The translations under genes and the position numbers were made by a program. 57,871 bases of DNA from the IMG/VR virus record IMGVR_UViG_3300009111_000006. One strand, given 5' to 3'. The notes under the pieces are model-generated. The model did no database searches, was not told the DNA's origin, and saw only the letters and a program-made list of their open reading frames with translations. Below are positions 5,341 to 56,263 of this stretch, piece by piece. Position 1 is the stretch's first letter. Each line of letters begins with the position of its first letter. Source of the stretch: a virus.

Positions 5341-5354
5341 GTGACAAATGTCAT
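5341..5354. promoter_or_regulatory. RTGAC-N4-GTCAY box (GTGACAAATGTCAT) in a divergent intergenic region. TATAAT at 5382..5387.
   Basis: One of 11 copies of this motif. The TATAAT ends 6 nt before the ATG at 5394. Confidence 0.55.
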
Positions 5355-20609: not shown

Positions 20610-20652
20610 AGTATAGCCCCCGGCAATGCCAGGGGCAAGTGACTTTTGTCAT
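20610..20652 (-). promoter_or_regulatory. Promoter (-35 TTGCCC, 17-nt spacer, -10 TATACT) with the RTGAC-N4-GTCAY box abutting the -35
   Basis: Box at 20639..20652, -35 at 20633..20638, -10 at 20610..20615 (read on the - strand). Confidence 0.55.
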
Positions 20653-22189: not shown

Positions 22190-22459
22190 TCACTCACTCC
22201 GATGCTCGACGCGCATTCGGCACTGATGGTCGGCCATATTGGACGGACCCGGTTTCTCGCTGCGCCGTTCATCGTAGGACGGCTGATTGGTGTAGGAAGG
22301 ATCGTGATGATGATCTGCTACAACGCGAGCACTCCCAATTCGCTCTCCAGATGATGACGAGAACAGAGAAAAAGCCATACCGATCTTTGCAAGTATGCCT
22401 GTTCGAACATTGAATTCATCGCCAACTTTCACATTATCAGGAACCGTTACTTTTGTCAT
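22190..22459 (-). CDS. Hypothetical protein (89 aa, start at MTKVTVPD)
   Basis: GGAGG RBS. Confidence 0.5.
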   Translation of the reverse strand: MTKVTVPDNVKVGDEFNVRTGILAKIGMAFSLFSSSSGERIGSARVVADHHHDPSYTNQPSYDERRSEKPGPSNMADHQCRMRVEHRSE

Positions 22460-22475: not shown

Positions 22476-22519
22476 ATATTACTCCCGACACAGATCGGGA
22501 GTAAAGTGACGAATGTCAC
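22476..22519 (-). promoter_or_regulatory. RTGAC-N4-GTCAY box, then a CTCCCGA/TCGGGAG hairpin, then a TAATAT -10
   Basis: Box at 22506..22519, hairpin at 22482..22501, -10 at 22476..22481. Confidence 0.5.
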
Positions 22520-25490: not shown

Positions 25491-25636
25491 GGAATGTCCT
25501 TCAGGAACTGCGACAGAAACGCAAAAAGTGCAACAAGAACAAGTACACATCCAGAGATAACCGCGAACACGCTGCATGGAGGTGCGACTTCGGATTGTTC
25601 AGGGAGATTGCTGTATTCTTTTTCTTCGTCGTCCAT
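25487..25636 (-). CDS. Small membrane protein (49 aa). Below the ORF-track cutoff.
   Basis: My translation is MDDEEKEYSNLPEQSEVAPPCSVFAVISGCVLVLVALFAFLSQFLKDIP. AAGGAA RBS, with a promoter upstream. Confidence 0.4.
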   Translation of the reverse strand: MDDEEKEYSNLPEQSEVAPPCSVFAVISGCVLVLVALFAFLSQFLKDIP

Positions 25637-25658: not shown

Positions 25659-25701
25659 AGTATAGCCAGCGCGTCACATAAAAATAAGTGACGAATGTCA
25701 T
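25659..25701 (-). promoter_or_regulatory. RTGAC-N4-GTCAY box followed 22 nt later by a TATACT -10
   Basis: The box at 25688..25701 overlaps the methyltransferase stop codon. The -10 is at 25659..25664. Confidence 0.5.
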
Positions 25702-28677: not shown

Positions 28678-29824
28678 GTTTATTCTCCACTTCCGTGATT
28701 CTTTTTCCAATCCAATAGCCTACTGGAACGGCGATGGCGTTACCGAGTTGACGATAGCGAGCGCTATCTGACTGTCCTGATGTCCATCCAGTCGGAAACC
28801 CCTGTAATTTTTCGCATTCTTCAGGAGTAAGCCTACGAACACCAAAGATATGATCGTTTCGTAGAATGGAAAGTTTTTGATATGCACCATGAGCACTCTT
28901 TCCATCGCCCGTGTGCATAAGCGGTAGAGAAATTCCTTCTCCGTGCGTAAGCCCATCACGATTTGCATCAAAAATAAGCGGCTGGGCAGGATTAGAACGC
29001 AGGCTAATCATATCGGGAGTGCTAATGGAATTGTTTTGCTCGACGATCCCAATCAGGTGCCCGCTCTCGGCGGCTTGCTGTGTTGTCATGGCGTGTCCGT
29101 GCCGCTTTGAGTGCGCAGCAAGAGTTCCGACTATGTAGGTTTCTCTGCTTGGATCATACCTGCCGCTTCTTGAAGAGCTTGCTGTAATTGCGTGGGTAAT
29201 GCTCGTCCCCGGTTTTTTGCTCTCTTGAGTATCCCCTGCGCCGCTTTCGGACTCAAATAAAACTTCTGCGGAACGTCCGTCTCCAGAATGTCCCACAATG
29301 AAGACTCTGCGACGGCGCTGGGGCACTCCGAAAAACTGAGCGTCAAGCACCCGCCAGGAGATTTTATATTTTGGTCCCCATGCGAGGCCTGCGCTTTTCC
29401 AGCCTCCGACAGGGATTTCCGGTACGCATCCGGTAAGGACGCCAATAACGATTGCAAAGTCTTTCCCGTCATTGGACGACAGTAAACCGGGGACATTCTC
29501 TGCAACGAACCAGTCCGGGATAAACTCGTCAATAGTTCTTGCAAATTCGTAGAACAATCCTGATCGCTCTCCAGCAAGACCTTCCCTTTTTCCGGCAATG
29601 GACAAGTCCTGGCAGGGAAATCCGCCGACGAAAACATCGGCATAGGTAATGGTTTCTTTGTTCGCATTGCGAATATCTCCTATGTTTTTCACTTGCGGCC
29701 AGTATCGTTTCAAAACAGAAGATGCCTGGCTGTCCTTTTCGCACTGGAACAAGGGTGTCATTCCAGCGTTTTCAAAAGCCAAATCAAAACCGCCAATTCC
29801 TGAAAAGAAGCTGTTGAATGTCAT
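28667..29824 (-). CDS. DNA (cytosine-5)-methyltransferase
   Basis: FFSGIGGFDLAF (motif I), GGFPCQDLSIAGKREG (IV), ENVPGLLS (VI), QLGNAIAVPV (X). ATGA coupling at 29824. Confidence 0.9.
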   Translation of the reverse strand: MTFNSFFSGIGGFDLAFENAGMTPLFQCEKDSQASSVLKRYWPQVKNIGDIRNANKETITYADVFVGGFPCQDLSIAGKREGLAGERSGLFYEFARTIDEFIPDWFVAENVPGLLSSNDGKDFAIVIGVLTGCVPEIPVGGWKSAGLAWGPKYKISWRVLDAQFFGVPQRRRRVFIVGHSGDGRSAEVLFESESGAGDTQESKKPGTSITHAITASSSRSGRYDPSRETYIVGTLAAHSKRHGHAMTTQQAAESGHLIGIVEQNNSISTPDMISLRSNPAQPLIFDANRDGLTHGEGISLPLMHTGDGKSAHGAYQKLSILRNDHIFGVRRLTPEECEKLQGFPTGWTSGQSDSARYRQLGNAIAVPVGYWIGKRITEVENKHAA

Positions 29825-30132
29825 TTCTCGCATGACAAAATCTCCCCCAGTAGCTTTATCTGGGCATCCATGATGTTCATGATTTTTGAGATCAGCATCC
29901 ATGTTCGTGCAATGTGCTTATGCAGGGCGAGCGGAGTGCTGCTATCAACAACTTCCATGTGCTTGGCAAGTTCTTCCTGCGTGATTTCCAGGCAGGTGAC
30001 ATGAAAGTTGTACAATGCGCGTTCGTGGGTATCTTCCCAGCGAAAGTGGCATTTCTTGCATTCGACGGTGCCATTTGAAACGACAGGCCCGTTGCAATAA
30101 GGACATGGAAGAGCGATGGTTTTAGCCAACAT
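29821..30132 (-). CDS. Zinc-ribbon protein (103 aa)
   Basis: CPYC...CKKC. Confidence 0.5.
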   Translation of the reverse strand: MLAKTIALPCPYCNGPVVSNGTVECKKCHFRWEDTHERALYNFHVTCLEITQEELAKHMEVVDSSTPLALHKHIARTWMLISKIMNIMDAQIKLLGEILSCEK

Positions 30133-31687: not shown

Positions 31688-32134
31688 TTACTCCATCCAG
31701 GCGGATAAATCTTTCTTCATGTAGACCCGGGGTTCTTTTTTGACAGTCGCAACGGAAGCGGGAATCTTTCCTGACAATGCAACCTGTTCAAACACTTCCA
31801 CGTCCAACTTGAGAGACAGTGCCATGGGCATGTTCTTTTGGCACCATTCGATGGCTTGCGCCTGATCGTACACAACGACATCGAATTCTTTGATCTCCCA
31901 CGGCAAGCCACCCGGCTTCTTTTCCTTCGTGGTATCGAACAGGGAGAGAGCACGCTTTTGGACTTCGTCTGTCAATAAGGCAGCGTCTTCGGCGTACTTT
32001 TTCTGTGCAGCTTCGAATGATTTGTATTCGTCCGTAGCCTTTACAGCGGCGAGCATCTCTTTCAGCTTCGCCGCCACGAGATCGGCGTTGTGCTTGGCGA
32101 TGGCCAAAGCCTTTATTTGCTGAGAAATCTCCAT
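31688..32134 (-). CDS. Coiled-coil protein, tentatively Gp157/Gam-like
   Basis: Start at MEISQQ overlaps the upstream stop (TAATG). The family call is from memory only. Confidence 0.4.
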   Translation of the reverse strand: MEISQQIKALAIAKHNADLVAAKLKEMLAAVKATDEYKSFEAAQKKYAEDAALLTDEVQKRALSLFDTTKEKKPGGLPWEIKEFDVVVYDQAQAIEWCQKNMPMALSLKLDVEVFEQVALSGKIPASVATVKKEPRVYMKKDLSAWME

Positions 32135-32454
32135 TACTTTTTCTCCATTTCTTTTTGAACACATTCGATTTTGTCCCATCCAGTGACAAGGCGGATCGCC
32201 CTGGCGACATTGAAGGGGCGTTCTTCAATAATGCCGAGTAACTCCATGTTCTCCAAGTAGTAGCCGATAACGCTGGATGACACGTTGAAGCGTGCGGCCA
32301 TCTCACGCAGGGAAGGGGTGAAGCCGTGTTCTTTCTGGAAGCCCTCGATGAATTTCGCGAGTACCACCAGCTTTCCAATCTTTCGGAACACAGGCCTCGG
32401 GCGGCTTGTATCAGAGCGGGAGTTTAGGTATGAGAATTGCACTTTCGCCTCCAT
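32134..32454 (-). CDS. Winged-helix DNA-binding protein resembling the LexA N-terminal domain
   Basis: GFTPSLREMAARFNVSSSVIGYYLENMELLGIIE. Confidence 0.55.
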   Translation of the reverse strand: MEAKVQFSYLNSRSDTSRPRPVFRKIGKLVVLAKFIEGFQKEHGFTPSLREMAARFNVSSSVIGYYLENMELLGIIEERPFNVARAIRLVTGWDKIECVQKEMEKK

Positions 32455-32921: not shown

Positions 32922-32967
32922 TGTATCTCCTGTTAGCATTATAGAACATCGTTTCTATCAAACCAAT

Positions 32968-33027
32968 ATGACAAATGTCACTTCTTTTCGGTGCGGATGT
33001 AATTCCGATACGAATCGGGAGTATAAT
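32968..33027 (+). promoter_or_regulatory. Divergent control region: RTGAC-N4-GTCAY box, a TTCCGAT/ATCGGGA hairpin, and TATAAT
   Basis: Box at 32968..32981, hairpin at 33003..33020, TATAAT at 33022..33027. Confidence 0.5.
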
Positions 33028-34876: not shown

Positions 34877-35122
34877 TCATAAATGCACCTTGTGGTTATG
34901 AACGGATACCGCCATGTACAGGGGGGTAGGATCACCGGGGAATGTCTGCATCGAGACCTGGTTATCTGTTACCATTTCGGCCAGGATGTCTTTGAGAATG
35001 GCGGGGTGAGTCTTCATGTCCTTGGCGATCACCTTTGCATCCTCGAGCGGGTGCCAGACGATGTATTCATAAATCCGTTGCTTGAGATTTTTTCTAATTG
35101 CTTGTTCTGCTTGATCATCCAT
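34877..35122 (-). CDS. Small putative winged-helix regulator (81 aa)
   Basis: GGAGG RBS. It is divergent from the RHH gene. Confidence 0.4.
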   Translation of the reverse strand: MDDQAEQAIRKNLKQRIYEYIVWHPLEDAKVIAKDMKTHPAILKDILAEMVTDNQVSMQTFPGDPTPLYMAVSVHNHKVHL

Positions 35123-35167
35123 AGTAGCCTCCATAATAATTTTAGCGATTTTAGGTTGCTAATGAAA

Positions 35168-35237
35168 GTGACAAATGTAATGGTTTAGGCAAGATAAAAT
35201 CCTACGTATTGACTTTTTTATTCTCGGGGGGTATTAT
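35168..35237 (+). promoter_or_regulatory. Box variant plus a near-consensus promoter (TTGACT, 17-nt spacer, TATTAT) firing a leaderless gene
   Basis: Box at 35168..35181, -35 at 35209..35214, -10 at 35232..35237, ATG at 35244. Confidence 0.6.
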
Positions 35238-35243
35238 TTCTGT

Positions 35244-35483
35244 ATGCCAAAACGTAATAAAGATTTTCCATCGAGGTTGGATATAAGCGTGCCTCCAGAG
35301 ATGCGTCTGCAACTGATCGCCATCGGTTACTACCGGGGGATCGGCGGGGAGTATGCGACTCCAGCCCGCAATATGCTCGACAAGGGGATCGCCGAATTCT
35401 TTCAGGGACTTTCATCGGTAGAGCGCTCCCGCTTTGATGAAATTCTTGCGAGTGTCAAGATTAGGGAGGTAGGCTTGCCATGA
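35244..35483 (+). CDS. Ribbon-helix-helix (Arc/CopG-like) DNA-binding protein
   Basis: RLDISVPPEMRLQLIAIGYY is a beta-strand-helix start. No SD; the ATG lies 6 nt after the -10. Confidence 0.5.
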   Translation: MPKRNKDFPSRLDISVPPEMRLQLIAIGYYRGIGGEYATPARNMLDKGIAEFFQGLSSVERSRFDEILASVKIREVGLP

Positions 35484-36350: not shown

Positions 36351-36881
36351 TTATTCTGGCGCAAAAGCGGGGGCGCAGGTGAAACTGATTGAATTGCGGC
36401 GATTATTTCTTTTCGCAGCTTGAACCATCGAACCAGCGATCTCGATGTCTCTCTCGATGTTATGGGTGGCGTGTACCCATGCGAAAGTGGCTGTTATACC
36501 TTCGTTCTTCAGGCAAGCAGCGAGGCGGGAGCAAAAACCTTCGGCGTTATCGCTGGACAGGATGAAGACAAGTTCGTCACCCGAAAACCAGCGGGCACGC
36601 AGCATACAATCGGCGGCGCGAACATGAATCGCCCGCTTGATCTTGCCGTTCATGACCTCGTAACCGTTCTTACCACCTTCGCTGTATTTCTCGTTCAGGG
36701 TGTGTAGGTTATCAATATCCATGAAGATCACACAGCGGGCAGTGTTGGCGATGCGGGGAAGTTCATACTTCAGGGCGGCTCGGGTGGTAACACCAAAGGC
36801 GGGATCCACCGAAAGTTCATTGACCATCATCTGCATGGTCAAGAGTTGGGCTTGCAAGTCGTGGTAAGAATGGCGTGGCAT
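36351..36881 (-). CDS. Stand-alone GGDEF-family nucleotide cyclase-like protein (SGDEL motif)
   Basis: DPAFGVTTRAAL, FMDIDNLHTLNEKY, RWFSGDELVFIL, TATFAWVHA and MVQAAKRNNRR line up with GGDEF-domain landmarks. Confidence 0.75.
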   Translation of the reverse strand: MPRHSYHDLQAQLLTMQMMVNELSVDPAFGVTTRAALKYELPRIANTARCVIFMDIDNLHTLNEKYSEGGKNGYEVMNGKIKRAIHVRAADCMLRARWFSGDELVFILSSDNAEGFCSRLAACLKNEGITATFAWVHATHNIERDIEIAGSMVQAAKRNNRRNSISFTCAPAFAPE

Positions 36882-36903: not shown

Positions 36904-36947
36904 AGTGTAGCAAAGTTCCGATACACATCGGGAGTGTCAAATATCAC
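36904..36947 (-). promoter_or_regulatory. Box variant, then a TTCCGAT/ATCGGGA hairpin, then a TACACT -10, upstream of the GGDEF gene
   Basis: Box at 36934..36947, hairpin at 36916..36933, -10 at 36904..36909. Confidence 0.45.
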
Positions 36948-42032: not shown

Positions 42033-42185
42033 TTAGAAACCAAAGACTTTAGCGAACATATTGACGTTACCAGCGGCGCTATTAGCAGCGCTCATGTCTA
42101 CCGTTGAACCAGCAGCGGCAGAGAAGTAGCAGAACAGGCAGTACACAACGAACAGGAACAGAGCGAACAGTGCGACGTTTTTCAT
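42033..42185 (-). CDS. Small secreted or membrane protein (50 aa, start at MKNVALF)
   Basis: AAAGGATAAT RBS. Hydrophobic N-terminus. Confidence 0.45.
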   Translation of the reverse strand: MKNVALFALFLFVVYCLFCYFSAAAGSTVDMSAANSAAGNVNMFAKVFGF

Positions 42186-42229
42186 GAGATTATCCTTTTT
42201 GTTTGAATGGTTGAATTGAGTACACATGA

Positions 42230-42254
42230 GAGTGAACTAGAGCCTAGTTCACTC
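42230..42254 (-). other. Perfect 11-bp stem-loop followed (on the - strand) by the TCATGTGTACTCAATTC box
   Basis: GAGTGAACTAG-agc-CTAGTTCACTC. Box at 42213..42229. Confidence 0.7.
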
Positions 42255-42455
42255 ATTCTGTATTCAATTGTCGATGTCTTTATAGTCTTCTCACTGGTAG
42301 AGCTGCCATCGGTGTACCCAGTCGCTACTGGTGGAACCTACGTATATACTCAGTTACCGCGTGTGAGACTTTGTTCTTATTTGGTTGTCAATGTGCTAGT
42401 GTTTCTTACTTCCTTGTTTCTATACTTATTATAGCACGCGTGAGCGATAACAATA

Positions 42456-42491
42456 GTGTCATTTGTCATATATTTTTATGACAAATGTCAT
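42456..42491. promoter_or_regulatory. Two RTGAC-N4-GTCAY boxes in inverted orientation, 22 bp centre to centre
   Basis: GTGTCATTTGTCAT (42456..42469) and ATGACAAATGTCAT (42478..42491), inside the 445-bp early/late divergent region. Confidence 0.6.
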
Positions 42492-42612
42492 AATACATTT
42501 GTTCTATATTGCCAAACACGAACTTTATTCGTTGCTCGAATTCGACATAGGCACTACTTCTCACGCACGATTTCCGATTTTTCAATTCCATCCATATTTC
42601 CCCCGATAAAAT

Positions 42613-42655
42613 ATGACGAATGTCACTTGTGACGCAGCTCTCGCTGTTGTAAGAT
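42613..42655 (+). promoter_or_regulatory. Late-arm promoter: the box abuts the -35 TTGTGA, 17-nt spacer, -10 TAAGAT
   Basis: Box at 42613..42626, -35 at 42627..42632, -10 at 42650..42655, AAGGAG RBS, ATG at 42673. Confidence 0.55.
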
Positions 42656-43220: not shown

Positions 43221-43399
43221 TGACCGAGAAGCAGATGCTTGCCCTGAGAAAAGTGATCGAGTACCTGGACGAGGAGCGAAAGGACTATCACGCGAGCGGG
43301 AGGCCGGAGGGTCATGTCTACGAAAGCGTGATGGTGTTGGAAGAGCTTTTGGACAGGGAAGAGCGTCTCGAGTTGTTCATCGCGAGGAAGAAATATTGA
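43220..43399 (+). CDS. Hypothetical protein (59 aa). Below the ORF-track cutoff.
   Basis: ATGA-type overlap with the upstream stop. My translation is MTEKQMLALRKVIEYLDEERKDYHASGRPEGHVYESVMVLEELLDREERLELFIARKKY. A terminator follows. Confidence 0.45.
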   Translation: MTEKQMLALRKVIEYLDEERKDYHASGRPEGHVYESVMVLEELLDREERLELFIARKKY

Positions 43400-43420
43400 C
43401 CGCCGAGAGGCGGTTTTTTC
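43399..43420 (+). terminator. Intrinsic terminator
   Basis: ACCGCC-gaga-GGCGGT-TTTTT. Confidence 0.7.
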
Positions 43421-43421
43421 T

Positions 43422-43430
43422 TGCTATAAT
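43422..43430 (+). promoter_or_regulatory. Extended -10 promoter TGcTATAAT for leaderless gmhA
   Basis: The TATAAT at 43425..43430 ends 6 nt before the ATG at 43437. No SD. Confidence 0.5.
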
Positions 43431-43436
43431 GTGTGT

Positions 43437-43955
43437 ATGGAACATCTTGACCAGGTCATCAAGTCGGTTACGCTGATCGCCCAGCCGGAGATTGAAAAAG
43501 CGACATTCCTGCTTACCGAGGTGCGCGATCGCGGGAATAGTGTGTGGATTGTCGGGAATGGCGGGAGTGCTGCGACCGCATCGCATTTTGCAAACGATCT
43601 GTGCAAAATGGGCGGGGTGAAAGCATTTTCATTGCCGGACATGACATCTCTAGTGAGTGCGCACGCGAACGATGATGGGCATGGGGCGATGTTCTCTGAA
43701 CCACTGAAGAGGATGCTGAATACCAACGATGTGCTGGTCGCGATCTCGTGTAGCGGGAATTCCGAAAATGTTGTGAACGCTGCGCAGTTTGCGATGAGCA
43801 TTGGCTGTGTCGTTATTGCGATGACCGGGAACAGGCCAAGTCGGTTATCGTTACTCAAACCGGATGTGCTAATTCAAGCCATGGCGGAACACATCACGGT
43901 GCAGGAAGACATACACATGATCGCCTGCCATGCGATTGCGAGGGGGATAAGATGA
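43437..43955 (+). CDS. gmhA: SIS-domain phosphoheptose isomerase (GmhA-like)
   Basis: VGNGGSAATASHFANDL and ISCSGNSENV. Confidence 0.75.
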   Translation: MEHLDQVIKSVTLIAQPEIEKATFLLTEVRDRGNSVWIVGNGGSAATASHFANDLCKMGGVKAFSLPDMTSLVSAHANDDGHGAMFSEPLKRMLNTNDVLVAISCSGNSENVVNAAQFAMSIGCVVIAMTGNRPSRLSLLKPDVLIQAMAEHITVQEDIHMIACHAIARGIR

Positions 43956-44249: not shown

Positions 44250-44993
44250 ATGCAGTGCCAGGCGTATGTGCGCAACTGCCGTGAATGTGGATACCACGAT
44301 GATCATCGCGCCAATGGAAACTGCCCGCAGTGTTGTGCTGACAGGCGCTGTCGCGAGAACGCAGTGCCGGGATATAAATGGTGCGATCGGCACGGTGGGC
44401 CTGCGCCTGGAAGAAACTTCTACGGATTGGGAAGGCGTATGACAACCGGGTCGGGCAGTTCATTTCCGCTGACAAGGCTGGCATCGAAATATCGCCAGAT
44501 GATCCAGGATGGCCGCATACTTTCGAACCGGCACAGCTTGGAGATTGTACGCCATCGCATCGAGCAGTTGGCAGATCGCATCGATCTGAATGATGCGCCG
44601 GATAGGTTTGCGGTTCTCTCCAAGCTATGGAAGGAATACACAAAGAAGATTGACGAGAAGCAGCCGCTCGAAGCCCATGCCGTTCGCCTGCAAATCGATG
44701 AGCAGTTCGAAGCTGCCTATCACGATTACGCAGCCTGGAAACAGATGTTCGAAGCGCTTGACCTGGACAGGAAGATGGTCGAGAGCGAAGTGAAAGTAGC
44801 CAAGGAAATTCAGGCAATTATGACCGCCGAGGAAGCATACGAGTTTGCGGCCAAGTTGCTGGGAGCGATAATGAATGTTGTTACAGACGCAGGGCAACTC
44901 CGCAGAATCCAATACGAGTTTACGCGACTTATTGGCGAAAAGCCTGAGCAGCGGGCTGGGTCAGGCGGCGGAGAAGTTATCGAAGTCGAATGA
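44250..44993 (+). CDS. Putative small terminase subunit with an N-terminal Cys-rich zinc finger
   Basis: Called only from its position directly upstream of the large terminase. Confidence 0.4.
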   Translation: MQCQAYVRNCRECGYHDDHRANGNCPQCCADRRCRENAVPGYKWCDRHGGPAPGRNFYGLGRRMTTGSGSSFPLTRLASKYRQMIQDGRILSNRHSLEIVRHRIEQLADRIDLNDAPDRFAVLSKLWKEYTKKIDEKQPLEAHAVRLQIDEQFEAAYHDYAAWKQMFEALDLDRKMVESEVKVAKEIQAIMTAEEAYEFAAKLLGAIMNVVTDAGQLRRIQYEFTRLIGEKPEQRAGSGGGEVIEVE

Positions 44994-47439
44994 TCCGGCG
45001 AGCTGGATAGAAGACAACTTCTACATCCCGGAGACCCGCAACGATCCCGATCTGCGCGGGTTGATGCGTTTGCAGGACTACCAGCGGGACGCGATCCGGG
45101 AAGCATTGTCCAAAGATGAAAATGGGCTGTATAAGTACTCGATCATCGTCTGGTCCGACATCAAAAAATCTGCCAAGTCGTCAATCGCCGCAGCGGTTGT
45201 GCAATATGGTCTCGAACATACGGAATGGGGCGAATACTACATCATTGCCAACGATCTCAAGCAGGCTGACTCGCGTGTGGCGCATTACCTGAGAAGGTCG
45301 ATCCAGTTGAACGCGGACAAGTCCACGAAGTATTCCACGCGTGGATACAAGATAACTTCGCAGAACGGCTCTTTCGCCGAAGCGATCCCGATTGATCCAA
45401 GCGGAGAGGCCGGATCGAACGCGGATGGAATTTTCTTCTCCGAATTGTGGGGGGCGAACGAAGAGCAGAAACACATCATGTGGTGTCTCGATCAGGACAG
45501 TGACGTTTTGACCCGGAAGGGCTGGAAAAAAGGCGTAGAACTTACGCGCCTCGATGAAGTAGCTGTCTACAATTATGGAAAGATTGAGTGGGAACATCCG
45601 CGTTCTGTTTTTATCGAGCATTACACTGGCAAGATGCACTTATACGAGCATAAAAACTTTAGTCTGATGTGTACTCCCGATCATCGGCTTTATGGACGAT
45701 ATTCTTATGCTGGAATGAAGTCAGGGCGATATGACACATTCGGAGTGATGCGATCCAACGTTCTGCGAGAAAGTGGATACGGATATTACCATCCGGTTTT
45801 GACTGCCGATCCGGTTGCGGGCGAAATCGACATTCCGAAATATATTTACATCGCAAAAACAAAATTCAAGCCGGAGAAATATATCCCGTGGGACAAGTGG
45901 GCTTCGTTCATGGGGTTATATCTCACCGAGGGCAGCACAGATACTTTCCGTGGGGTTCCTTGCCATGTGAAAATTTCTCAATTGCGGGAACCCCATCCAC
46001 AAAGGTATGACCGAATTCGCGAAATCCTGGAAGATGTTTTTGGCGATTGGCTAAATGTAAACAAACGTGACGGATTTTCAATTGGAAGCACAGAGCTTGC
46101 CAAGATTACAAAAAAGTTTGGAACGACATGGCAGAAACGCATTCCGAGGACGATCATTGAAAGCCCGCCGGATGTACTCGAAAAATTCCTGGAAGGATTT
46201 TGGCTTGGAGATGGAAGCAATCCAATCAAGTCTGGAACGAAAACTTATTGCTGTGCAAGCGAGGGACTCGCAGACGATTTGCAAGAAATCTTATTTAGAC
46301 TTGGATACCGATCGTCGAAACGCCCCCATGAAAAATATTGGAGAGTGAGCCAGATACTTGGATCGTTTGATGTTTCTGTCAGCAAAAAATCCTGGCAGGA
46401 AGTCGATTACTCCGGGAAAGTCTGGTGCCCGGTTGTCTCTACAGGATTGTTTATTGCAAGAAGGGAAGGCAGACCATTCGTGACCGGTAACAGTGAAATG
46501 ACGCTTTCGCCGACAAAATACGGAAAGTCCTTCCGTTGGGTGGAGTCGTATGCCGGGTTCATCGAAGAGTCGAAACTTCTGTACAGCCTGTACGAAACTG
46601 GCGTTAAACGTGGACAGCTTCTCTGGCCGGACAGGTTATATCCTGTAACTGGCGGCGCACCGGCACCGTTGGAACTGTATGTCAACCGGGATGCCCGTAT
46701 GTTGTGCCTGTGGAATACACAACCTCGCTGCCCATGGCAAACACCGGAGTATTACCAGTCAGAATCGCAGGTTTTGCTGCCTAATCAGTTTGCTCGTATG
46801 CACCGCAACCAGTGGGTGGCGAGCGAGGAAGTTTTCGTGCCGGTCGAGTGGTATGACGCTTGTTTCCATGGATCCCAGGATTGGCCAACGTATGACCATA
46901 AAAAGCATCCGATGATTATCGCCCTGGATGCTGGTGTTTCCTCGGATAACTTCGGTCTCTGGATGGGATGCAGGCACCCTGCATCATCGAAGGATGTGCT
47001 GACACAGTATGTCCAGCGCTGGAAGCCGCCGATCGGTGGAAAGATAGACTTCCAGGGCACCGTTGAAAATCCGGGCCCGGAGCGTGTTTTGCGACAACTT
47101 GTAAAAGAGTATAATGTAATAGAAATTGCCTACGATCCGTACCAGCTTCATGACATGGCAACCAGGCTCAAGCAGGAAGGACTTGCGTGGTTTCGACCGT
47201 TTGGTCAGGGCAACGAGCGCTTGCTTGCCGACAGCCAGTATCGGGCACTTATTAGAGATCGCAGGTTTTGGCACCGCGGCGAACCCGAGATGCGCGAGCA
47301 TGTTATGAACGCCAATGCCAGCGTGGATGAAAAGAACGACAATAAATTGCGCATCGTGAAGCGGAACGAAAGTAGCAAAATAGACCTGTGCATCACGGCC
47401 AGCATGGGTTCGTATGAAATCTTACGACTAAACCTGTGA
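44875..47439 (+). CDS. terL: Terminase large subunit interrupted by an intein (518-aa extein)
   Basis: Position before the portal gene. Terminase-like N- and C-terminal regions. The only in-frame ATG is at 44875, which gives a 119-nt overlap with the upstream gene. Confidence 0.75.
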   Translation: MLLQTQGNSAESNTSLRDLLAKSLSSGLGQAAEKLSKSNDPASWIEDNFYIPETRNDPDLRGLMRLQDYQRDAIREALSKDENGLYKYSIIVWSDIKKSAKSSIAAAVVQYGLEHTEWGEYYIIANDLKQADSRVAHYLRRSIQLNADKSTKYSTRGYKITSQNGSFAEAIPIDPSGEAGSNADGIFFSELWGANEEQKHIMWCLDQDSDVLTRKGWKKGVELTRLDEVAVYNYGKIEWEHPRSVFIEHYTGKMHLYEHKNFSLMCTPDHRLYGRYSYAGMKSGRYDTFGVMRSNVLRESGYGYYHPVLTADPVAGEIDIPKYIYIAKTKFKPEKYIPWDKWASFMGLYLTEGSTDTFRGVPCHVKISQLREPHPQRYDRIREILEDVFGDWLNVNKRDGFSIGSTELAKITKKFGTTWQKRIPRTIIESPPDVLEKFLEGFWLGDGSNPIKSGTKTYCCASEGLADDLQEILFRLGYRSSKRPHEKYWRVSQILGSFDVSVSKKSWQEVDYSGKVWCPVVSTGLFIARREGRPFVTGNSEMTLSPTKYGKSFRWVESYAGFIEESKLLYSLYETGVKRGQLLWPDRLYPVTGGAPAPLELYVNRDARMLCLWNTQPRCPWQTPEYYQSESQVLLPNQFARMHRNQWVASEEVFVPVEWYDACFHGSQDWPTYDHKKHPMIIALDAGVSSDNFGLWMGCRHPASSKDVLTQYVQRWKPPIGGKIDFQGTVENPGPERVLRQLVKEYNVIEIAYDPYQLHDMATRLKQEGLAWFRPFGQGNERLLADSQYRALIRDRRFWHRGEPEMREHVMNANASVDEKNDNKLRIVKRNESSKIDLCITASMGSYEILRLNL
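45484..46491 (+). mobile_element. Intein (336 aa) with a LAGLIDADG homing endonuclease
   Basis: Starts at Cys (W|CLDQDSDVLT). Block B TPDH. LYLTEGST and FLEGFWLGDGS. Ends ...FVTGN|S. Confidence 0.8.
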
Positions 47440-48312: not shown

Positions 48313-49812
48313 ATGCCAAACGTTCCGCAGCTAGTTCCAGAAACGCAATTTCCAACAGATGCAGTTCGTGAAAGCGTACAGGTATCGCCTGCACCTACCA
48401 TCTTACCGACAACCGGTTGGTTGACGATGGATATTGCATCAGCCGCAGATGAAATTACTCCGTGGGGACGCGCCCCAGCATTCAGGGACAGGCAACTGCG
48501 TGACTTTTGGCCGAATGAACCTTACCTGGCTGGCGCAATGTCGAATGTCAGTTTCAGGAATGCGTCATTCCTGTGGGAAATTCAGGGTCCTGACAAGATC
48601 GCCCAGGCCGTTACTGAGATGTTGCTCAATTCCATTGCGAATGACACGATTGGCTGGATACCGTTCATCGAGACGTTCTCGCAGGACCTGTATGCGCAGG
48701 ATAACGGTGCTTTCCAGGAAATTATTCGCGATCCTGGCATGGATGCCAACAGCCCATTCAAGAATGAGCGCGCCCCGGTTATTGGGCTGGCTAATCTCGA
48801 CTCAAATCTTTGCACGCGAACTGGTAATCCAGAATTTCCCATAATTTACACAGACGAGAATGGAAAATTCCACAAGATGCCCTGGTACAGCGTGATCCCA
48901 TTCTCGGATTACGCGTCGTCCATTCGTTCCATGCACGGCATTGGCTACTGTGCCGTAACCAGGGCGTTGAAATTATCACAGTACATCCGTTCTATAATCC
49001 TTTACAAGACAGAAAAGGTTGCTGGTCGCCATTACAAGCAGATGCACTTTGTCTCAGGCGTAAGTAAACAGGAACTAAAGGATGAAATGCAGCGAGGTCA
49101 GGAGGATGCGAACAATGCCGGAATGATACGCTACATCATGCCTGCTATCCTGGCGTCCCTTGACCCGGAGAAGCCTGTTTCAACGGCGACAATTGACCTT
49201 GCCAGCTTGCCGGATGGATTTGACTTCGATCAGGAAATGAAGTGGTATATCGCAGGACTGGCGCTGGACTTCGGCGTGGACTACCAGGAGTTTGCGCCCC
49301 TGCCAGGTGGGAACATAGGTTCAAGCCAGCAATCGATGATCCTGGATCGCAAATCGAGCGGGAAAGGCCCAGCTTCGTTCATGCTCAAGCTGGCGCAGGC
49401 GTATAAGTCTTATGGAGTTTTGCCGCGAAACTGCAAGATGGCTTTCCAGGACAAGGATGAGCAGGAAGCGCTGGAACGCCAAACCGTGCGCACGAAAGCC
49501 GCTGAAGAATATGCAATCCTAGCGCGTTCTGGAATTCTATCTCCCGATGCGATCCGGCAGGATGCCGTCAAGCGCAACATCTATGACAAAGCATTGATCG
49601 ATACCATGGACAAGGATTATGGCATCGACATTCTCTCTCGGAATAAATCAGCAATTGGACAGACTGGCGGGAACACACTGGCCGAAGATGCGGCCCGACA
49701 GACTACAGGGAACATAAGCGAGACATCTGGTGCGCAGTTACGCAAAGAAAAGCAGGGCTTTATTAGTGAATTGGTTTCCAAGTTGAAGCCATCCCGAGGC
49801 GTGCATGGCTAG
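48313..49812 (+). CDS. Portal protein
   Basis: 499 aa, lying between the terminase and the protease/capsid genes. GGAAGGA RBS. Confidence 0.75.
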   Translation: MPNVPQLVPETQFPTDAVRESVQVSPAPTILPTTGWLTMDIASAADEITPWGRAPAFRDRQLRDFWPNEPYLAGAMSNVSFRNASFLWEIQGPDKIAQAVTEMLLNSIANDTIGWIPFIETFSQDLYAQDNGAFQEIIRDPGMDANSPFKNERAPVIGLANLDSNLCTRTGNPEFPIIYTDENGKFHKMPWYSVIPFSDYASSIRSMHGIGYCAVTRALKLSQYIRSIILYKTEKVAGRHYKQMHFVSGVSKQELKDEMQRGQEDANNAGMIRYIMPAILASLDPEKPVSTATIDLASLPDGFDFDQEMKWYIAGLALDFGVDYQEFAPLPGGNIGSSQQSMILDRKSSGKGPASFMLKLAQAYKSYGVLPRNCKMAFQDKDEQEALERQTVRTKAAEEYAILARSGILSPDAIRQDAVKRNIYDKALIDTMDKDYGIDILSRNKSAIGQTGGNTLAEDAARQTTGNISETSGAQLRKEKQGFISELVSKLKPSRGVHG

Positions 49813-50299
49813 AATCAGCGTCAACATCCGTATGCCAAAGAAGATCGTGGATGCAAACGATTATCTTGACGCATTGGAAAGGGCGCAAAGGCTGATTGTT
49901 TCGAAAGACCTCGTGAAGCTCTTCGAGGAAACCGTTGAAGGTTGGGAGCATAAACCTGACTTCGTAACCAAGTTGAACGTAAGCAGCGGAACAATCAGTG
50001 TGACCGTTCGCGCCAGCGGGCAGTACGGAAGTCAATATGCGCTCGTTTCAAAAGGCTCTCCGTCGCACACGATCGTCCCAAGCACACAACCTTATCTTAG
50101 GTTTCAGCGTGGCTACCGTGCTGCCACAAAGGTTGGAGTTCTCAGGAGTGGTCCAAAGTCCAGGTTCGGAAACTACGTCTCTGCGTTGGGTGTAAATCAT
50201 CCTGGTTTTGAACCAAGAGACTTCCCAAAACTCATCAAAGAAGAATACAGCAGGCAATTTACGGAAGAAATGCAAGGCGCGATCAATAATGTCAAGTGA
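49805..50299 (+). CDS. Head-module protein of unknown function (164 aa)
   Basis: Its start overlaps the portal stop. Confidence 0.5.
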   Translation: MARISVNIRMPKKIVDANDYLDALERAQRLIVSKDLVKLFEETVEGWEHKPDFVTKLNVSSGTISVTVRASGQYGSQYALVSKGSPSHTIVPSTQPYLRFQRGYRAATKVGVLRSGPKSRFGNYVSALGVNHPGFEPRDFPKLIKEEYSRQFTEEMQGAINNVK

Positions 50300-50333
50300 C
50301 AAATGTCATATATATTCCATCTCATGCTATAAT
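50296..50333 (+). promoter_or_regulatory. RTGAC-N4-GTCAY box 18 nt upstream of the extended -10 TGcTATAAT
   Basis: Box at 50296..50309. TATAAT at 50328..50333. Confidence 0.5.
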
Positions 50334-50352: not shown

Positions 50353-52065
50353 ATGGCAAATAGGCAGCAAAAAGAAGATCGGCGTCGGGCTATTCGCTTG
50401 ATGCAGGAAGAAAAGAAAAAGGAAAAGCTGGTCGAGAAGGAAATCCAGCCGCTCGACTATCTTGATCTTCCAGCAGAAGAACCGCAGGAAGTTGCCGAGA
50501 AGGAAATGGGAGAAGATGTATTCCCACTTCCCGGCCCGACATCCTGGGAAGAACTTGAAGCTGCAAAGATGGCCATGGAAAAAGCCCACGAACTGCGCGA
50601 AGCTGGGTGGAATGTTCAAGACCTCGTCTACAATATCGTTCGACATCCGATAATGGGCGCAAAAGAAAAAGCGTCCGCTATCCAGGCCGTTGGCACCGGG
50701 TTCGGAGAACGCGTTGATAAAATTATGTCGGATGATGGTGAGTACGAAGAAAAAGACCTTGACTTGCTTTCTGTACAGGCCGTTATAGCCCATGACGGAC
50801 GAAAAATTTCACTGGTAGAAAAAGCGCTTGATTATATCGAGAAGAAGAAGCTGACCACCAAGGTGGAGAACGCGCTTTCGGACGAACAATTTGCCCTGGT
50901 GCGCGAAGTCGATGGCAAGAAAGAACGCAAGTATCCCATTCACGACAAGGCGCATGTGCGCAATGCCCTGGCGCGAGCTGCACAGATGATTTCTGCGGGC
51001 GGGGATGCCGCCGCGGATGCAAAAGCGGCGTTGCCGAAAATCCGCGCTGCGGCAAAGCGCATGGGCATCGAAGTCTCGATGGAAAAAGATCGCAATGCCA
51101 TCCTGGTGGAAAAAGATGCCAGCGGGAACTGGCGCTGGGTTGGCTGGGTATCCAACAACTTCATCGATTGGGATGGAGATATTTTCAGCGAAAGCGCTCA
51201 CAAGGAATATGTTTCCTGGGTCAACGAGAATATGGATGTTGCCCCGGTATCAATGTCCTGGCATACTCCCGGTACGGTTCGGGAGAATCCGGTTGATTTT
51301 GTGACCTACGAGAACGGTTTCCTGATCATGAGCGGGAAACTCACCGAGAAAGAAGCTGCGGCTATTCTTACGGTTCAGAAAAGCGTTGAACTCGGGATGT
51401 CGCATGGAACATTTATTTTTGGACGCGATCCAAAGGATCCGCGTATTGTAACGAAATATAGAATGTATGAATCTTCGGATTTGCCAACCAATAACGCGGC
51501 GAATCCGTTTACTGACTTTGAAACAGTCACGAAGGAGGCTGGTATGGATAAGTTGCAATATCTCGCCGCGATCTTGGGAGACGAAAAGAAAGCCAAGGCT
51601 TTCCTCGAAAAGACCGGCCAAAAGCAGAAGGATTTGCAGGATGCAGGCATTGAAAGCAAGGGTAAAGACGAAGTTCCCACAGAACCTGTCGCTGCCGTTG
51701 TTCCCGAACCTATCGCCCCTGCCGTCCCGCAGGATGAGCACATCATGAAGATGGTCGAGAAGGTTCTCAAGGAAACGTACAAAATCGATGACCTGAACGC
51801 ATGGGTTTCCCAAGCGAACGAAGCCATCGAGAAGGTGCCTGTCCTGGAAGACCTGGTCAAAAATCTTTCGACAGCGACGGATGAAAAGGTGGCGGAGTTG
51901 CTGACCCCGCCAGCCGCAAGCCTGGCCTGGGCGATGAAGAGTCGCGCCAGTCAGTCCGACAAAACCGTCGCAGAACCGGAAGATGAAATCGTAAAAAGCA
52001 AGCCTGGCGTTCCGGGCGAATACTGGCTTTCGGATGCCACCGGCACCGTTCCAGTAAAACAGTAG
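50353..52065 (+). CDS. Prohead serine protease (HK97/S78-like) fused to scaffold-like regions
   Basis: WVSNNFIDWDGDIFSESAH...MSWHTPG...ELGMSHGTF. Charged coiled-coil N- and C-terminal regions. Confidence 0.65.
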   Translation: MANRQQKEDRRRAIRLMQEEKKKEKLVEKEIQPLDYLDLPAEEPQEVAEKEMGEDVFPLPGPTSWEELEAAKMAMEKAHELREAGWNVQDLVYNIVRHPIMGAKEKASAIQAVGTGFGERVDKIMSDDGEYEEKDLDLLSVQAVIAHDGRKISLVEKALDYIEKKKLTTKVENALSDEQFALVREVDGKKERKYPIHDKAHVRNALARAAQMISAGGDAAADAKAALPKIRAAAKRMGIEVSMEKDRNAILVEKDASGNWRWVGWVSNNFIDWDGDIFSESAHKEYVSWVNENMDVAPVSMSWHTPGTVRENPVDFVTYENGFLIMSGKLTEKEAAAILTVQKSVELGMSHGTFIFGRDPKDPRIVTKYRMYESSDLPTNNAANPFTDFETVTKEAGMDKLQYLAAILGDEKKAKAFLEKTGQKQKDLQDAGIESKGKDEVPTEPVAAVVPEPIAPAVPQDEHIMKMVEKVLKETYKIDDLNAWVSQANEAIEKVPVLEDLVKNLSTATDEKVAELLTPPAASLAWAMKSRASQSDKTVAEPEDEIVKSKPGVPGEYWLSDATGTVPVKQ

Positions 52066-53786: not shown

Positions 53787-54734
53787 ATGCTTGAAGGTAA
53801 GATTCTCATTACGGGTGGTGCAGGCACGCTTGGACGCGCAATTATCAAGCGCTCCACTGAAGATAAATGGCCCTGCCAAATTACAATCTTTTCGACCGAT
53901 GCAATCAAGCACGCTTTTGTGCGCGAGCAGTATCCGCATGTTCAATCGGTCATTGGCGACATCCGCTCTTATGATGCCGTCTACAATGCCATGGCGGGCA
54001 AGGACATCGTCATTCATGGCGCAGCGGTAAAACATATCCCGGTCAGTGAGTACAATTCAATCGATACCTACGAAATCAACGTGGAAGGTTCGCGCAATGT
54101 TTGTATGGCGGCGATCCAGCATCACACTCCCCACGTTCTGGGTATCTCGACTGATAAAGCCTGTCATCCCGCAAATGCCTATGGCGCGACCAAGATGCTG
54201 ATGGAGAAGATTTTCCAGGAATATGCACGCCTGGGTTTCTCTACTCAGTTCCATCTGGTTCGTTATGGCAACGTGCTGGAGAGCACCGGCTCTGTTATTC
54301 AAGTTTGGAAGAAAGCCATCGAGGATCACCAACCGATCAAAATGACCGACCCAGAAATGACTCGTTTCTGGCTTTCTCCAGACCAGGCGGTTACGCTGGT
54401 GCTGAAATCACTTGAATTGCAGAGTGGGCATATCTATGTCGCGAAAATGCCAGCTCTGAGTATAAGAAGACTGGCAGAGTATGGACTTGGGCTTGAAACG
54501 TTGGAGGAGATGTCGGTTGAAATTATTCCGCTTCGACCTGGAGAAAAAACGCACGAGGAACTCTTGACCGTTGAAGAGTGTCCATACGCCACTGAGTACA
54601 GAGATCATTATGACTTACGACCAAGCACAGATGTTCGTTACTTGCCCCACTGCGCTGCACATAAATACTCCAGCGATGAACCTGACCGAGAGCTAAGAAT
54701 GAAAGAATTACAGGAGATGCTTGACAATGGCTAA
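53787..54734 (+). CDS. PseB/CapD-type nucleotide-sugar 4,6-dehydratase
   Basis: ILITGGAGTLG, HGAAVKHIPVSEYN, ISTDKACHPANAYGATKMLMEK, VRYGNVLESTGSVI, MTRFWL. Confidence 0.85.
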   Translation: MLEGKILITGGAGTLGRAIIKRSTEDKWPCQITIFSTDAIKHAFVREQYPHVQSVIGDIRSYDAVYNAMAGKDIVIHGAAVKHIPVSEYNSIDTYEINVEGSRNVCMAAIQHHTPHVLGISTDKACHPANAYGATKMLMEKIFQEYARLGFSTQFHLVRYGNVLESTGSVIQVWKKAIEDHQPIKMTDPEMTRFWLSPDQAVTLVLKSLELQSGHIYVAKMPALSIRRLAEYGLGLETLEEMSVEIIPLRPGEKTHEELLTVEECPYATEYRDHYDLRPSTDVRYLPHCAAHKYSSDEPDRELRMKELQEMLDNG

Positions 54735-54999
54735 ACTATCTGGAACGGCAACGATCAGTGTCAATATATCCTTAGTCTTGCCAGAAGGCGAAGCGAGAGC
54801 GCTTTTAGCCATTGCAACATACGATTCGCAAGAATTCTTGCGCATCTATAAAGAGAAAATGGGAAGTAGACTCGATGGAAGAGAAAAAGACCTTTCATCA
54901 TTATTTGCGAGTATTCGTCTTCTACTTCCTCCAGTTATAAAAAATATCGACGACGCAAGGAGTTCTTTTTCTGGCGAAACGGATAACTGCAATGGATAA
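54727..54999 (+). CDS. Hypothetical protein (90 aa) within the sugar operon
   Basis: ATG overlaps the upstream stop (ATGGCTAA). Confidence 0.45.
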   Translation: MAKLSGTATISVNISLVLPEGEARALLAIATYDSQEFLRIYKEKMGSRLDGREKDLSSLFASIRLLLPPVIKNIDDARSSFSGETDNCNG

Positions 55000-55004
55000 C
55001 TGCA

Positions 55005-55685
55005 ATGGATAACCTGCCTCGTCTCGCGATTGCGATGGTGACATATAGGCGAACCGAAGAAGCACTGCGAACCATCCGAGGCGTATCGGAAAACCTTGTA
55101 TACCCAAAAGAATTGATTGGCTGGTTCGTTGGCGATGATGGCTCTGACAAGGCTCACTCCAATGCCTTGATACAAGAGATTGTGCGCGCGAGCGATGGCA
55201 GGCTGGTCGATTATCACAATGAGCGCTTTACTCCCATGACTGGTAAGGGCTGGAATCGCGTACTCGGGATGGGATACCAATATTCCGATTTTGTCCTGTG
55301 GCTGGAAGATGACTGGGAACTCACAAAGCCATTTTTTATCGAACCATACATTCGTATGCTGATGGATCGCGAAGATGTTGGGCTGGTTCGTCTTGGGCAC
55401 CTGGCAGTTGGTTCTGATGTTCACATTGTCGGTCACAGTGGCGTGCATTACCTGAAATACCAGAAAACAACTCAGTATGCTTACAGCGGCAATCCACAAA
55501 TCCGCCATGCCCGCTACGTGAAATATTACGGCTGGTATGCGGAAAACAAAAATCCAGGCGAAATAGAGCTGGATTACGATGCACGCTTTCGCGCCAGCCC
55601 TGACGGCCCGGAAATATGGCGACCGGCTGACATTCCCGGCTGGGGTGTGTTTGGGCACATTGGAACGGAGAAATCGTATGAATGA
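55005..55685 (+). CDS. GT-A fold glycosyltransferase (GT2-like)
   Basis: LAIAMVTYRRTEEAL...GDDGSD...WLEDDWEL. Confidence 0.65.
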   Translation: MDNLPRLAIAMVTYRRTEEALRTIRGVSENLVYPKELIGWFVGDDGSDKAHSNALIQEIVRASDGRLVDYHNERFTPMTGKGWNRVLGMGYQYSDFVLWLEDDWELTKPFFIEPYIRMLMDREDVGLVRLGHLAVGSDVHIVGHSGVHYLKYQKTTQYAYSGNPQIRHARYVKYYGWYAENKNPGEIELDYDARFRASPDGPEIWRPADIPGWGVFGHIGTEKSYE

Positions 55686-56262
55686 CACCTACGATGGAAT
55701 TTCGGCAGAACAATGGCAAAAAGAACTTAGCGGGCAGAGCGATTGGAACGCACGTCACTTGATGATTGCATTCGCTACGCTTGGACTTCCAAAAACTTTT
55801 CTCGATGTTGGTTGTGGCGATGGAACAATGGTCAACGTAGCCCGACACCTGGGTGTGCTCTCATATGGAGTAGACCAGCTTATCGATGACCAGTGGGACA
55901 AAACGGCTTTCTCGCACCACAACCTCGTTGACCGGTATGTTCACCCATACCAATGCGAACTTGTCCTGTGCCTGGAAGTTGCAGAACATCTTCATCCATC
56001 GGCTCACGCAACCCTTTGCGACACACTTGTCGGGAACTTGAAAGAAGGTCGTGGAAACTACCTTATCTTCTCTGCGGCGCTCCCCAACCAGGGCGGAATC
56101 GGACACGTAGCAGAGAGACCCCCGAAATACTGGATGGATCAGTTTGCGCTGCGAGGATTGAATTTCAGGCGTGACCTGACGATCAATCTTTCGTTACACT
56201 GGTCTAACATTGGCTCTCCGCTTACCTGGTTGGCGGCGAATGTTCAGGTCTGGGAGAAATAA
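55678..56262 (+). CDS. Class I SAM-dependent methyltransferase
   Basis: FLDVGCGDGTMV (motif I), LCLEVAEHL. Its start overlaps the upstream stop. Confidence 0.75.
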   Translation: MNDTYDGISAEQWQKELSGQSDWNARHLMIAFATLGLPKTFLDVGCGDGTMVNVARHLGVLSYGVDQLIDDQWDKTAFSHHNLVDRYVHPYQCELVLCLEVAEHLHPSAHATLCDTLVGNLKEGRGNYLIFSAALPNQGGIGHVAERPPKYWMDQFALRGLNFRRDLTINLSLHWSNIGSPLTWLAANVQVWEK

Positions 56263-56263
56263 C

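Follow-up and report, generated by a model that had tools for sequence, protein, structure and literature searches.

A recurrent palindromic box before the operons of an uncultured phage: a putative host-type activator site within a composite promoter

The virus record IMGVR_UViG_3300009111_000006 of IMG/VR comprises 57,871 nucleotides (hereinafter "the window", i.e., the whole stretch of DNA analysed). Its early and late arms diverge from a control region where three copies of a palindrome, RTGAC-N4-GTCAY ("the box"), start at positions 42456, 42478, and 42613; further copies stand before many other operons. This locus raises the question of which protein reads the box, one encoded by the phage or one borrowed from its host, and whether this protein activates or represses the adjoining promoters. 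It is reasonably likely, judging from the comparative sequence evidence, that the box is the site of a dimeric host activator bound in class II geometry, in a composite promoter native to the presumed Chloroflexota host. The searchable literature yielded no account of the box, nor of how Chloroflexota promoters are built. An activator site that replaces the -35 element is a known class of mechanism; what appears to be new is the motif, together with its distribution at the phylum level and its large-scale adoption by phages.

The box and its distance to the -10 element

The exact pattern RTGACNNNNGTCAY (RTGAC-N4-GTCAY) occurs eight times in 57.9 kb against 0.18 expected, and none of the 100 dinucleotide-preserving shuffles of the window that served as the null got to eight. 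With one mismatch allowed, 22 sites were found (6.5 expected); a symmetrised weight matrix built from the eight exact sites returned 10 sites with a score of at least 14 (0.45 expected). Despite the high coding density of the window (93% according to a rough gene map based on self-trained codon scoring), each of the top ten matrix sites (score of at least 16) is intergenic or overlaps a gene end only. The initial annotation had listed 11 copies confined to intergenic DNA and gene ends, and suggested a matrix scan as a check. All 11 were recovered by a pattern search of the window at the coordinates given there, and the placement of the ten best matrix sites in the whole-window scan agrees with that description. 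The copy at 36934 has two mismatches and scores only 10.3, yet it is intergenic and displays the same geometry as the others (see below). A weaker site at 40691, lacking a -10 hexamer at 23 nt, is probably a chance match. The claim that the box marks nearly every operon start was overstated: many operons are indeed preceded by it, and all four divergent junctions carry a strong copy, but these are among just 10 such gaps out of the 29 intergenic gaps of at least 45 nt. A 14-bp palindrome before many operons of this phage is a real feature.

The position of the box relative to the promoter is nearly fixed. When the boxes were oriented toward the nearest gene start and the -10 hexamer was defined by A at position 2 and T at position 6 (TAnnnT), such a hexamer was found 22–24 nt past the box end at nine sites, i.e., 5341, 20639, 22506, 25688, 32968, 35168, 36934, 42456 (- strand), and 42613 (+ strand). 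These hexamers read TATAAT (three sites), TATACT (two), TAATAT, TAAAAT, TAAGAT, and TACACT (one each), and are followed 16–28 nt downstream by an ATG with a Shine–Dalgarno sequence before it at eight of the nine sites, the site at 42456 having a 242-nt leader instead. In a loose test, 10 of the 11 boxes had a hexamer at 22–24 nt versus 14% of random intergenic positions (binomial P ~3e-8). At the same time, the phage sites have a poor -35 element: just 2–4 of 6 positions of the hexamer that follows the box agree with TTGACA. The spacing had been reported for five sites only because eight of the nine promoters point leftward and the earlier reader worked on the plus strand; the 18-nt spacing at 50296 and the separation of the 42456/42478 pair (22 bp, start to start) were described correctly. 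With the hexamer placed at -12 to -7, the box is centred at -42.5 (within ~1 bp, with inferred starts), which is the position of a class II activator site (~-41.5, abutting the -35). This geometry, proposed in the initial annotation, generalises to many other genomes, as described in the next section. The notion that half of the box serves as a sigma -35 element was discarded, since it implies impossible spacers of 24–31 nt.

The copies of the box and the promoters associated with them are as follows (coordinates, strand, description; distances are from the box end to the hexamer):

5341..5354, - strand: box GTGACAAATGTCAT; -10 TATAAT at 5312-5317, 23 nt; leftward promoter for genes 5095-5283 and 4399-5010
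20639..20652, - strand: box GTGACTTTTGTCAT; -10 TATACT at 20610-20615, 23 nt; gene 20171-20590; hairpin of -20.7 kcal/mol in the spacer
22506..22519, - strand: box GTGACGAATGTCAC; -10 TAATAT at 22476-22481, 24 nt; gene 22190-22459; terminator-like hairpin of -16.4 kcal/mol in the spacer
25688..25701, - strand: box GTGACGAATGTCAT, overlapping the end of gene 25698-27194; -10 TATACT at 25659-25664, 23 nt; gene 25487-25636
32968..32981, - strand: box ATGACAAATGTCAC at a divergent junction; -10 TATAAT at 32938-32943, 24 nt; long leftward replication operon from 32921
35168..35181, - strand: box GTGACAAATGTAAT with one mismatch, at a divergent junction; -10 TAAAAT at 35139-35144, 23 nt; 81-amino-acid gene 34877-35122
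36934..36947, - strand: weak box GTGTCAAATATCAC; -10-like TACACT at 36904-36909, 24 nt; gene 36351-36881
42456..42469, - strand: box GTGTCATTTGTCAT, proximal box of the leftward early promoter; -10 TATAAT at 42428-42433, 22 nt; gene 42033-42185
42478..42491, no strand assigned: box ATGACAAATGTCAT, partner of 42456 and distal box of the leftward promoter
42613..42626, + strand: box ATGACGAATGTCAC; -10 TAAGAT at 42650-42655, 23 nt; the ATG of the first rightward gene (42673) lies 17 nt further
50296..50309, + strand: box GTGACAAATGTCAT, overlapping the stop of gene 49805-50299; extended -10 TGcTATAAT (hexamer 50328-50333) at a non-canonical 18 nt; gene 50353-52065

At two of these promoters, hairpins with U-rich tracts lie inside the spacer (22478-22503 and 20616-20636 on the - strand; z ~-3.9 at the 22506 site and ~-3.2 at the 20639 site), so the upstream terminator and the next promoter overlap there. 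Terminator hairpins of the upstream operon can be accommodated there because the promoter places no constraint on the sequence of its spacer.

In the early region, canonical -35/-10 promoters are about as frequent as chance predicts (15 versus 15.3 expected). The sole strong one, TTGACT-17-TATTAT (35209-35237), precedes the small gene 35244-35483; the centre of the box at 35168 lies ~70 bp upstream of its inferred start. The homologue of this gene in a related contig, L039, also has a canonical promoter, TTGACA-17-TACGAT (L039 1073-1101), and in both phages no box is found at -42. Box promoters therefore represent a distinct class, and the promoter of 35244-35483, the one clearly independent of the box, may serve the earliest transcription unit.

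The same design in other viruses and in bacterial chromosomes

Three IMG/VR contigs, L001, L004, and L039, have the rightward arm in common with the window (35–70% protein identity) and retain the box pair in the divergent control region as well as the box before a terminase-like gene; in L001, a box also precedes the SIS gene, just 1 nt from its TATAAT. Metagenomes yielded five more related control regions (a sixth match, L220, was the L001 contig again). The box corresponding to 42478 is invariant in eight related control regions, for six of which it was part of the retrieval pattern (one of these six being the L001 contig), and the leftward -10 lies 22–23 nt from box 1 of the pair, neither element having been in that pattern. 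The distance between the box and the -10 element of the terminase-like gene is less constant: 23 nt in L039 (box at 11370), 18 nt in the window (50296), 11 nt in L001 (9886), and 9 nt in L004 (8393); the three short-spacing versions share an extended -10, TGnTATAAT.

Beyond these relatives, a scan of IMG/VR for two boxes 5–12 nt apart returned 92 stretches, ~46 of them with matrix-quality pairs spaced at 21–24 bp start to start, in contigs of 41–65% G+C. Across the 155 boxes in these loci, the distance to the -10 element (here a hexamer matching TATAAT at 5 or more of 6 positions) spikes at exactly 23 nt (17 boxes) and 46 nt (15 boxes) over a background of 0–4 per offset, the 46-nt spike representing the distal box of the pair. 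Apart from L001, L004, and L039, no proteins common to the window and the other box-bearing viral contigs were detected. Pfam searches with 93 open reading frames (ORFs) flanking 40 viral box pairs revealed no family in common, BLAST clustering of ORFs near the pairs in 40–46 viral loci grouped only ORFs from small sets of related contigs, and in a phmmer comparison of all window proteins with all loci no regulator candidate recurred except the 35244 gene in L039.

In bacteria, a stricter paired-box pattern (~40 bits by our own estimate, i.e., ~1 chance match in 596 Gb) was found in at least 120 stretches of contigs representing one genome per species. Among the 120 listed stretches, ~79 belong, according to the record titles, to metagenome-assembled genomes (MAGs) of Chloroflexota, e.g., Caldilineaceae, Anaerolineae, Ardenticatenaceae, Promineifilaceae, and "Chloroflexia", several contigs often coming from one MAG. 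The 311 boxes in the genome loci show the same spikes, at 23 nt (37 boxes) and 45/46 nt (52 boxes), the other offsets holding 0–11 and mostly no more than 6. Beyond the seed pairs, ~71 more boxes were encountered in ~800 kb versus ~6 expected, i.e., ~1 per 11 kb. Origin from a repeat or a miniature inverted-repeat transposable element was ruled out, since the flanks differ between the host sites, also within one genome.

A sequence logo was drawn from 61 host promoters chosen for a -10 at 23 nt, so the information in its -10 element is partly there by construction. The distal box spans ~-72 to -59 and the proximal one, which reads RTGACAWWTGTCAC, spans -49 to -36; next come T (-35) and A (-34), and finally TAtaaT, while positions -33 to -13 hold less than 0.2 bit each and form no TTGACA-like -35. 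The composite promoter can be written as RTGACAWWTGTCAC, then T-A, 21 unconstrained bases, and TAnnnT. A clear -10 accompanied by a poor or absent -35, as in class II promoters, is seen both in this logo and at the phage sites. All 61 promoters have the T, G, and A of the TGA-N6-TCA core (RTGAC-N4-GTCAY being xTGA-N6-TCAx). On the promoter-proximal side, 53 of 61 have C as the outer base, whereas on the distal side just 38 of 61 have G, an asymmetry that fits coupling to the polymerase.

The genes behind the host boxes are diverse: 52 of them include 10 for ArsR/SmtB proteins (two subfamilies), six for proteins with a PocR-type helix-turn-helix (PocR-HTH), two for Rrf2, and one for LacI, along with genes for multihaem cytochromes, GltD-like and other flavin oxidoreductases, a malic enzyme–PTA fusion, ABC transporter components, and enoyl-CoA hydratases; no tRNA genes were found linked to the host boxes. 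Certain regulator genes bear additional palindromes, namely TTCAA-N6-TTGAA just downstream of the -10 at ArsR-type genes (L114, L125, L168, L173, L213) and CTGCAT-N4-ATGCAG between the box and the -10 at PocR-HTH genes (L099, L155, L188, L216). These are probable autoregulatory operators of their own regulators, and their presence suggests a generic activating module with specific repressors acting on top of it. ArsR-family proteins, encoded behind 10 of the 52 host promoters, were also considered as binders of the box itself and rejected: two subfamilies occur in one contig, each with its own operator downstream of the -10.

The box is best considered a dimeric class II activator site because it is a palindrome, stands at an exact distance from the -10, has a partner two helical turns upstream, and is not accompanied by a -35 consensus; since the sites reside in host chromosomes and no candidate protein is common to the box-bearing phages, the activator is probably host-encoded. 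The presumed host lineage would be Chloroflexota of the Anaerolineae, Caldilineae, or Ardenticatenia type. In the proposed mechanism, a host-encoded dimeric protein would occupy the box with its centre near -42; in many cases a second dimer would bind the same DNA face at the partner box near -65, which lies 23 bp further upstream. It would replace the missing -35 contact and recruit the sigma-A polymerase reading the -10, i.e., would act by class II-type activation. The box module stands before ten transcription units of the phage, on both arms; most of the phage programme would thus depend on how active a global host regulator is, with gene-specific control presumably added through separate operators such as TACATTTGTTCTA beside the box pair (see below). 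More broadly, and only tentatively, Chloroflexota of the Anaerolineae, Caldilineae, and Ardenticatenia type may possess a previously undescribed promoter class, with a 14-bp palindrome at -42 (in many cases accompanied by another at -65) in place of the -35 and a global dimeric activator to read it. Their phages would have adopted this module for most of their operons, and the box could then serve as a sequence signature for predicting the hosts of uncultured phages.

Several observations weigh against this interpretation. Activation rather than repression is deduced here from geometry alone. The motif is the sole ground for the host assignment, as blastn and tblastx revealed no similarity between the window and the host loci. 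About 40 of the 120 listed genome matches are not labelled as Chloroflexota and include isolates of Streptomyces, Anabaena, and Microcoleus; therefore, similar paired palindromes are used elsewhere, possibly by unrelated regulators. Some isolated pairs, e.g., the one beside a TetR-like gene in L166, may likewise belong to other regulators. Finally, the late promoter of the terminase-like gene keeps the box but not its spacing. Since the box overlaps the core promoter at the short-spacing late sites and at the 1-nt site of L001, binding there would more likely repress; the same factor may act as a repressor at the late promoter.

A different arrangement was noticed among the matches outside Chloroflexota, in the MAG "Prevotella sp. 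RUG759" (ONYS01; the taxon label may be unreliable, with 52–55% G+C), where many tandem GTGACNNNNGTCAC arrays of 4–11 copies each have a period of 22 bp (L100, L118, L130, L141, L142, L149, L154, L179, L186, L209, L211), unlike the promoter pairs.

Candidate regulators and rival explanations

As for the family of the regulator, several known ones match the layout of the site, a CRP/FNR-like protein being the leading guess. In class II CRP/FNR promoters, the site is centred at -41.5 and the -35 is weak or absent; typical boxes are TTGAT-N4-ATCAA (FNR), TTGAC-N4-GTCAA (ANR/DNR), and TTAACANNTGTTAA (PrfA). The box resembles them as a 14-bp 5-4-5 palindrome with a TGA-N6-TCA core and a centre within 1 bp of -41.5, in the lack of a -35 consensus, and in its large and metabolically diverse set of targets. 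It differs in the outermost base (R/Y, not T/A), the invariant inner C and G, the partner site only 23 bp upstream, which is unlike the usual CRP/FNR tandem spacing, and the absence of a family gene consistently linked to the sites. The sequence TGAC-N4-GTCA has been reported within FNR-type (FNR/ANR/DNR) boxes (PMC1274295, PMC4974557). With E. coli CRP and FNR queries, phmmer gave strong matches in two of the 120 listed host loci (~0.9 kb from the box pair), weaker ones in two, and none in phage or viral loci. One of the two strong matches, the CRP-like protein of L121, shows a recognition helix similar to that of GlxR, and its gene has a canonical TGTGA-N6-TCACA site to itself, TGTGAAATGGATCACA. 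A wider phmmer search of the host loci with CRP, FNR, DosR, Rex, and LexA seeds found no regulator gene consistently linked to the sites.

Other known systems show partial likeness. In Mycobacterium, DosR/DevR (NarL/LuxR-type) binds tandem GGGAC-N4-GTCCC sites, the proximal one overlapping the -35, and LuxR-type boxes are centred at -42.5. The GAC-N4-GTC core, the tandem at about two helical turns, the proximal box at or over the -35, and the activation proposed here are in common with DosR; the flanking bases differ, the known DosR/LuxR-type boxes are longer (18–20 bp), and no linked response-regulator gene was found here. Multi-site phage repressors, such as those reading the stoperators of mycobacteriophage L5 or the conserved inverted repeats of phiC31, use motifs private to the phage and its own repressor. 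Like stoperators, the box is a single short motif recurring in many intergenic regions of a phage genome; unlike them, the motif and its promoter geometry are common to host chromosomes and unrelated phages, and no phage protein family common to the box-bearing viral loci, as expected of a cognate repressor, was found.

An alternative, which we consider rather unlikely, is that the box is the operator of a global repressor of host or phage origin, which occludes sigma region 4 and keeps the phage operons and a large host regulon silent until it is inactivated. Palindromes paired at about two helical turns are typical of cooperative repressors, and at several sites of the relatives, as well as at 50296, the box reaches into the -35 or spacer region of an extended -10 promoter, i.e., takes a classical repressor position. 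Its layout is also one base per half-site away from the Rex operator, with the consensus TTGTGAANNNNTTCACAA (PMC5355995), and shares the GTGAx-N4-xTCAC register with it, while many host targets are redox enzymes and others belong to energy metabolism. Nevertheless, the box does not conform to the Rex pattern TTGTGAA-N4-TTCACAA with A/T at the inner positions and TT/AA flanks: all 61 promoters have C/G at the inner position, conservation of the outer TT/AA is lacking, and 38% of the distal half-sites begin with A instead of G. Rex is, moreover, a repressor without a fixed promoter position, whereas the position of the box is fixed. A repressor in general needs no single-bp precision, yet the distances spike at 23 nt while other overlapping positions are nearly empty. 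Lacking a -35 consensus and showing only a weak TG-extension signal, these promoters would be poor even if derepressed, and the regulator genes of the host have separate operators at classical repressor positions.

Still less probable is a dimeric regulator encoded by the phage, reading the boxes on both arms and thereby coordinating early and late expression. The initial annotation favoured such a protein and proposed a LexA-N-domain-like product (32134-32454), a ribbon–helix–helix protein (35244-35483), and a zinc-ribbon protein (5394-5705); an 81-amino-acid winged-helix-like protein (34877-35122) with a faint MarR-type match in PHROG, the gene of which stands behind a box promoter, can be added to this list. 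The similarity of 32134-32454 to the LexA DNA-binding domain did hold, if weakly (Pfam, 23.0 bits versus a cut-off of 23.7; PDB entry 3k2z, a LexA repressor, E = 5e-4). The ribbon–helix–helix assignment of 35244-35483 found no family support, and the zinc-ribbon protein matched no Pfam family. The chromosomal sites are explained by none of these three. Save for the 35244 gene in L039, none of the candidates has homologues in the other box-bearing viral loci, and the ORFs flanking the 40 viral pairs have no common family. The 35244 gene and its L039 homologue themselves use canonical promoters with no box at -42. A phage protein as the box reader is not supported: the same promoters abound in Chloroflexota chromosomes outside any phage context, and they also occur in viral contigs in which no proteins in common with this phage were detected. 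It may nonetheless be that some protein of the phage binds this host-type box, competing with the host factor or mimicking it.

The initial annotation also pointed out the resemblance of the box to the Gram-positive LexA box, GAAC-N4-GTTC, which has the same 5-4-5 arrangement. That the box is the SOS (LexA) box of the host lineage, rendering the phage SOS-inducible at every operon, seems very improbable to us. The likeness is limited to the layout: the half-site is TGAC/GTCA, not GAAC, none of the 52 genes downstream of the host boxes falls into a recognisable SOS set by Pfam, the density of ~1 per 11 kb in the host loci is far above that of any known LexA regulon, and LexA sites are not characterised by a strict placement around -42. 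The GAAC-N4-GTTC sites of the window are mostly inside genes, and a better LexA-like candidate, TACATTTGTTCTA, is found elsewhere in the control region.

Adjoining signals, genome context, and implications

The conserved motif TACATTTGTTCTA is situated directly after the box at 42478:

42494..42506, + strand: TACATTTGTTCTA, unique in the window

L001 (351-365) and L039 (6031-6060) each yielded the motif independently, and in the latter it is followed by GAACTTTTGTTC, which has the layout of a Gram-positive SOS box. In three metagenomic relatives (L219, L222, L223), it stands between box 2 and a TATAAT at 24 nt, which is a repressor position inside a box-type promoter. TACATTTGTTCTA appears more plausible than the box as the target of a phage regulator, and may be a site of the host LexA or of the LexA-domain-like phage protein (32134-32442).

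Other signals of the control region were noted in passing. The 242-nt leader of the leftward early transcript (42186-42427, - strand) contains AGCACATTGACAACCAAATA and a hairpin at 42230-42254; AGCACATTGACAACCAAATA is also present in the otherwise unrelated viral contigs L081 (~11690-11720) and, in part, L070 (~2360). This leader may be a conserved leader RNA, though one without an Rfam match, the Rfam and tRNA scans of the window having returned nothing. On the rightward side, a terminator hairpin is followed by a TATAAT merely 6 nt before the ATG of the SIS-domain gene (43398-43439), the transcript of which looks leaderless.

The window as a whole looks like a complete, circularly permuted genome of the siphovirus type. 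Its rightward arm, from 42673 through the end to 18508, encodes sugar-nucleotide functions, a methyltransferase-like protein, head proteins, the tape measure protein (9500-12016), and tail fibres; the leftward arm, from 42185 down to 18537, encodes a clamp-like protein, an O-like initiator, a DnaB-like helicase, and two methyltransferases. The set of sugar-nucleotide genes is unusually large (two epimerases, a GHMP kinase, a SIS isomerase, and a 938-amino-acid multi-glycosyltransferase; 312-4045, 43437-43955, and 53787-57247), and there are three DNA-methyltransferase-like genes (25698-27194, 28667-29902, and 44875-47439), which together hint at glycosylation of the virion or of the DNA. Among annotated phage records, neither nucleotide nor protein searches turned up a close relative, the matches being remote and limited to methyltransferase and portal; searches with the DnaB-like and clamp-like proteins found no closer relatives of the early region; and the sequencing run carrying the phage, SRR5817589, is not mentioned in the searchable literature.

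Chloroflexota are abundant and mostly uncultured bacteria including, e.g., the filament formers of wastewater sludge; to our knowledge, almost nothing is known of their transcription signals. The composite promoter described here offers a usable annotation model for promoters in the genomes of Chloroflexota and their phages, the box can serve as bait for the DNA-affinity purification of a possible global regulator, and the motif provides for the assignment of uncultured phages to the Chloroflexota host group. If the proposed interpretation is true, the virus is a Chloroflexota phage with ten transcription units wired to a host factor. Such reliance of a phage transcription programme on one host transcription factor would be unusually complete, and infection would be coupled to the physiological signal sensed by that factor.

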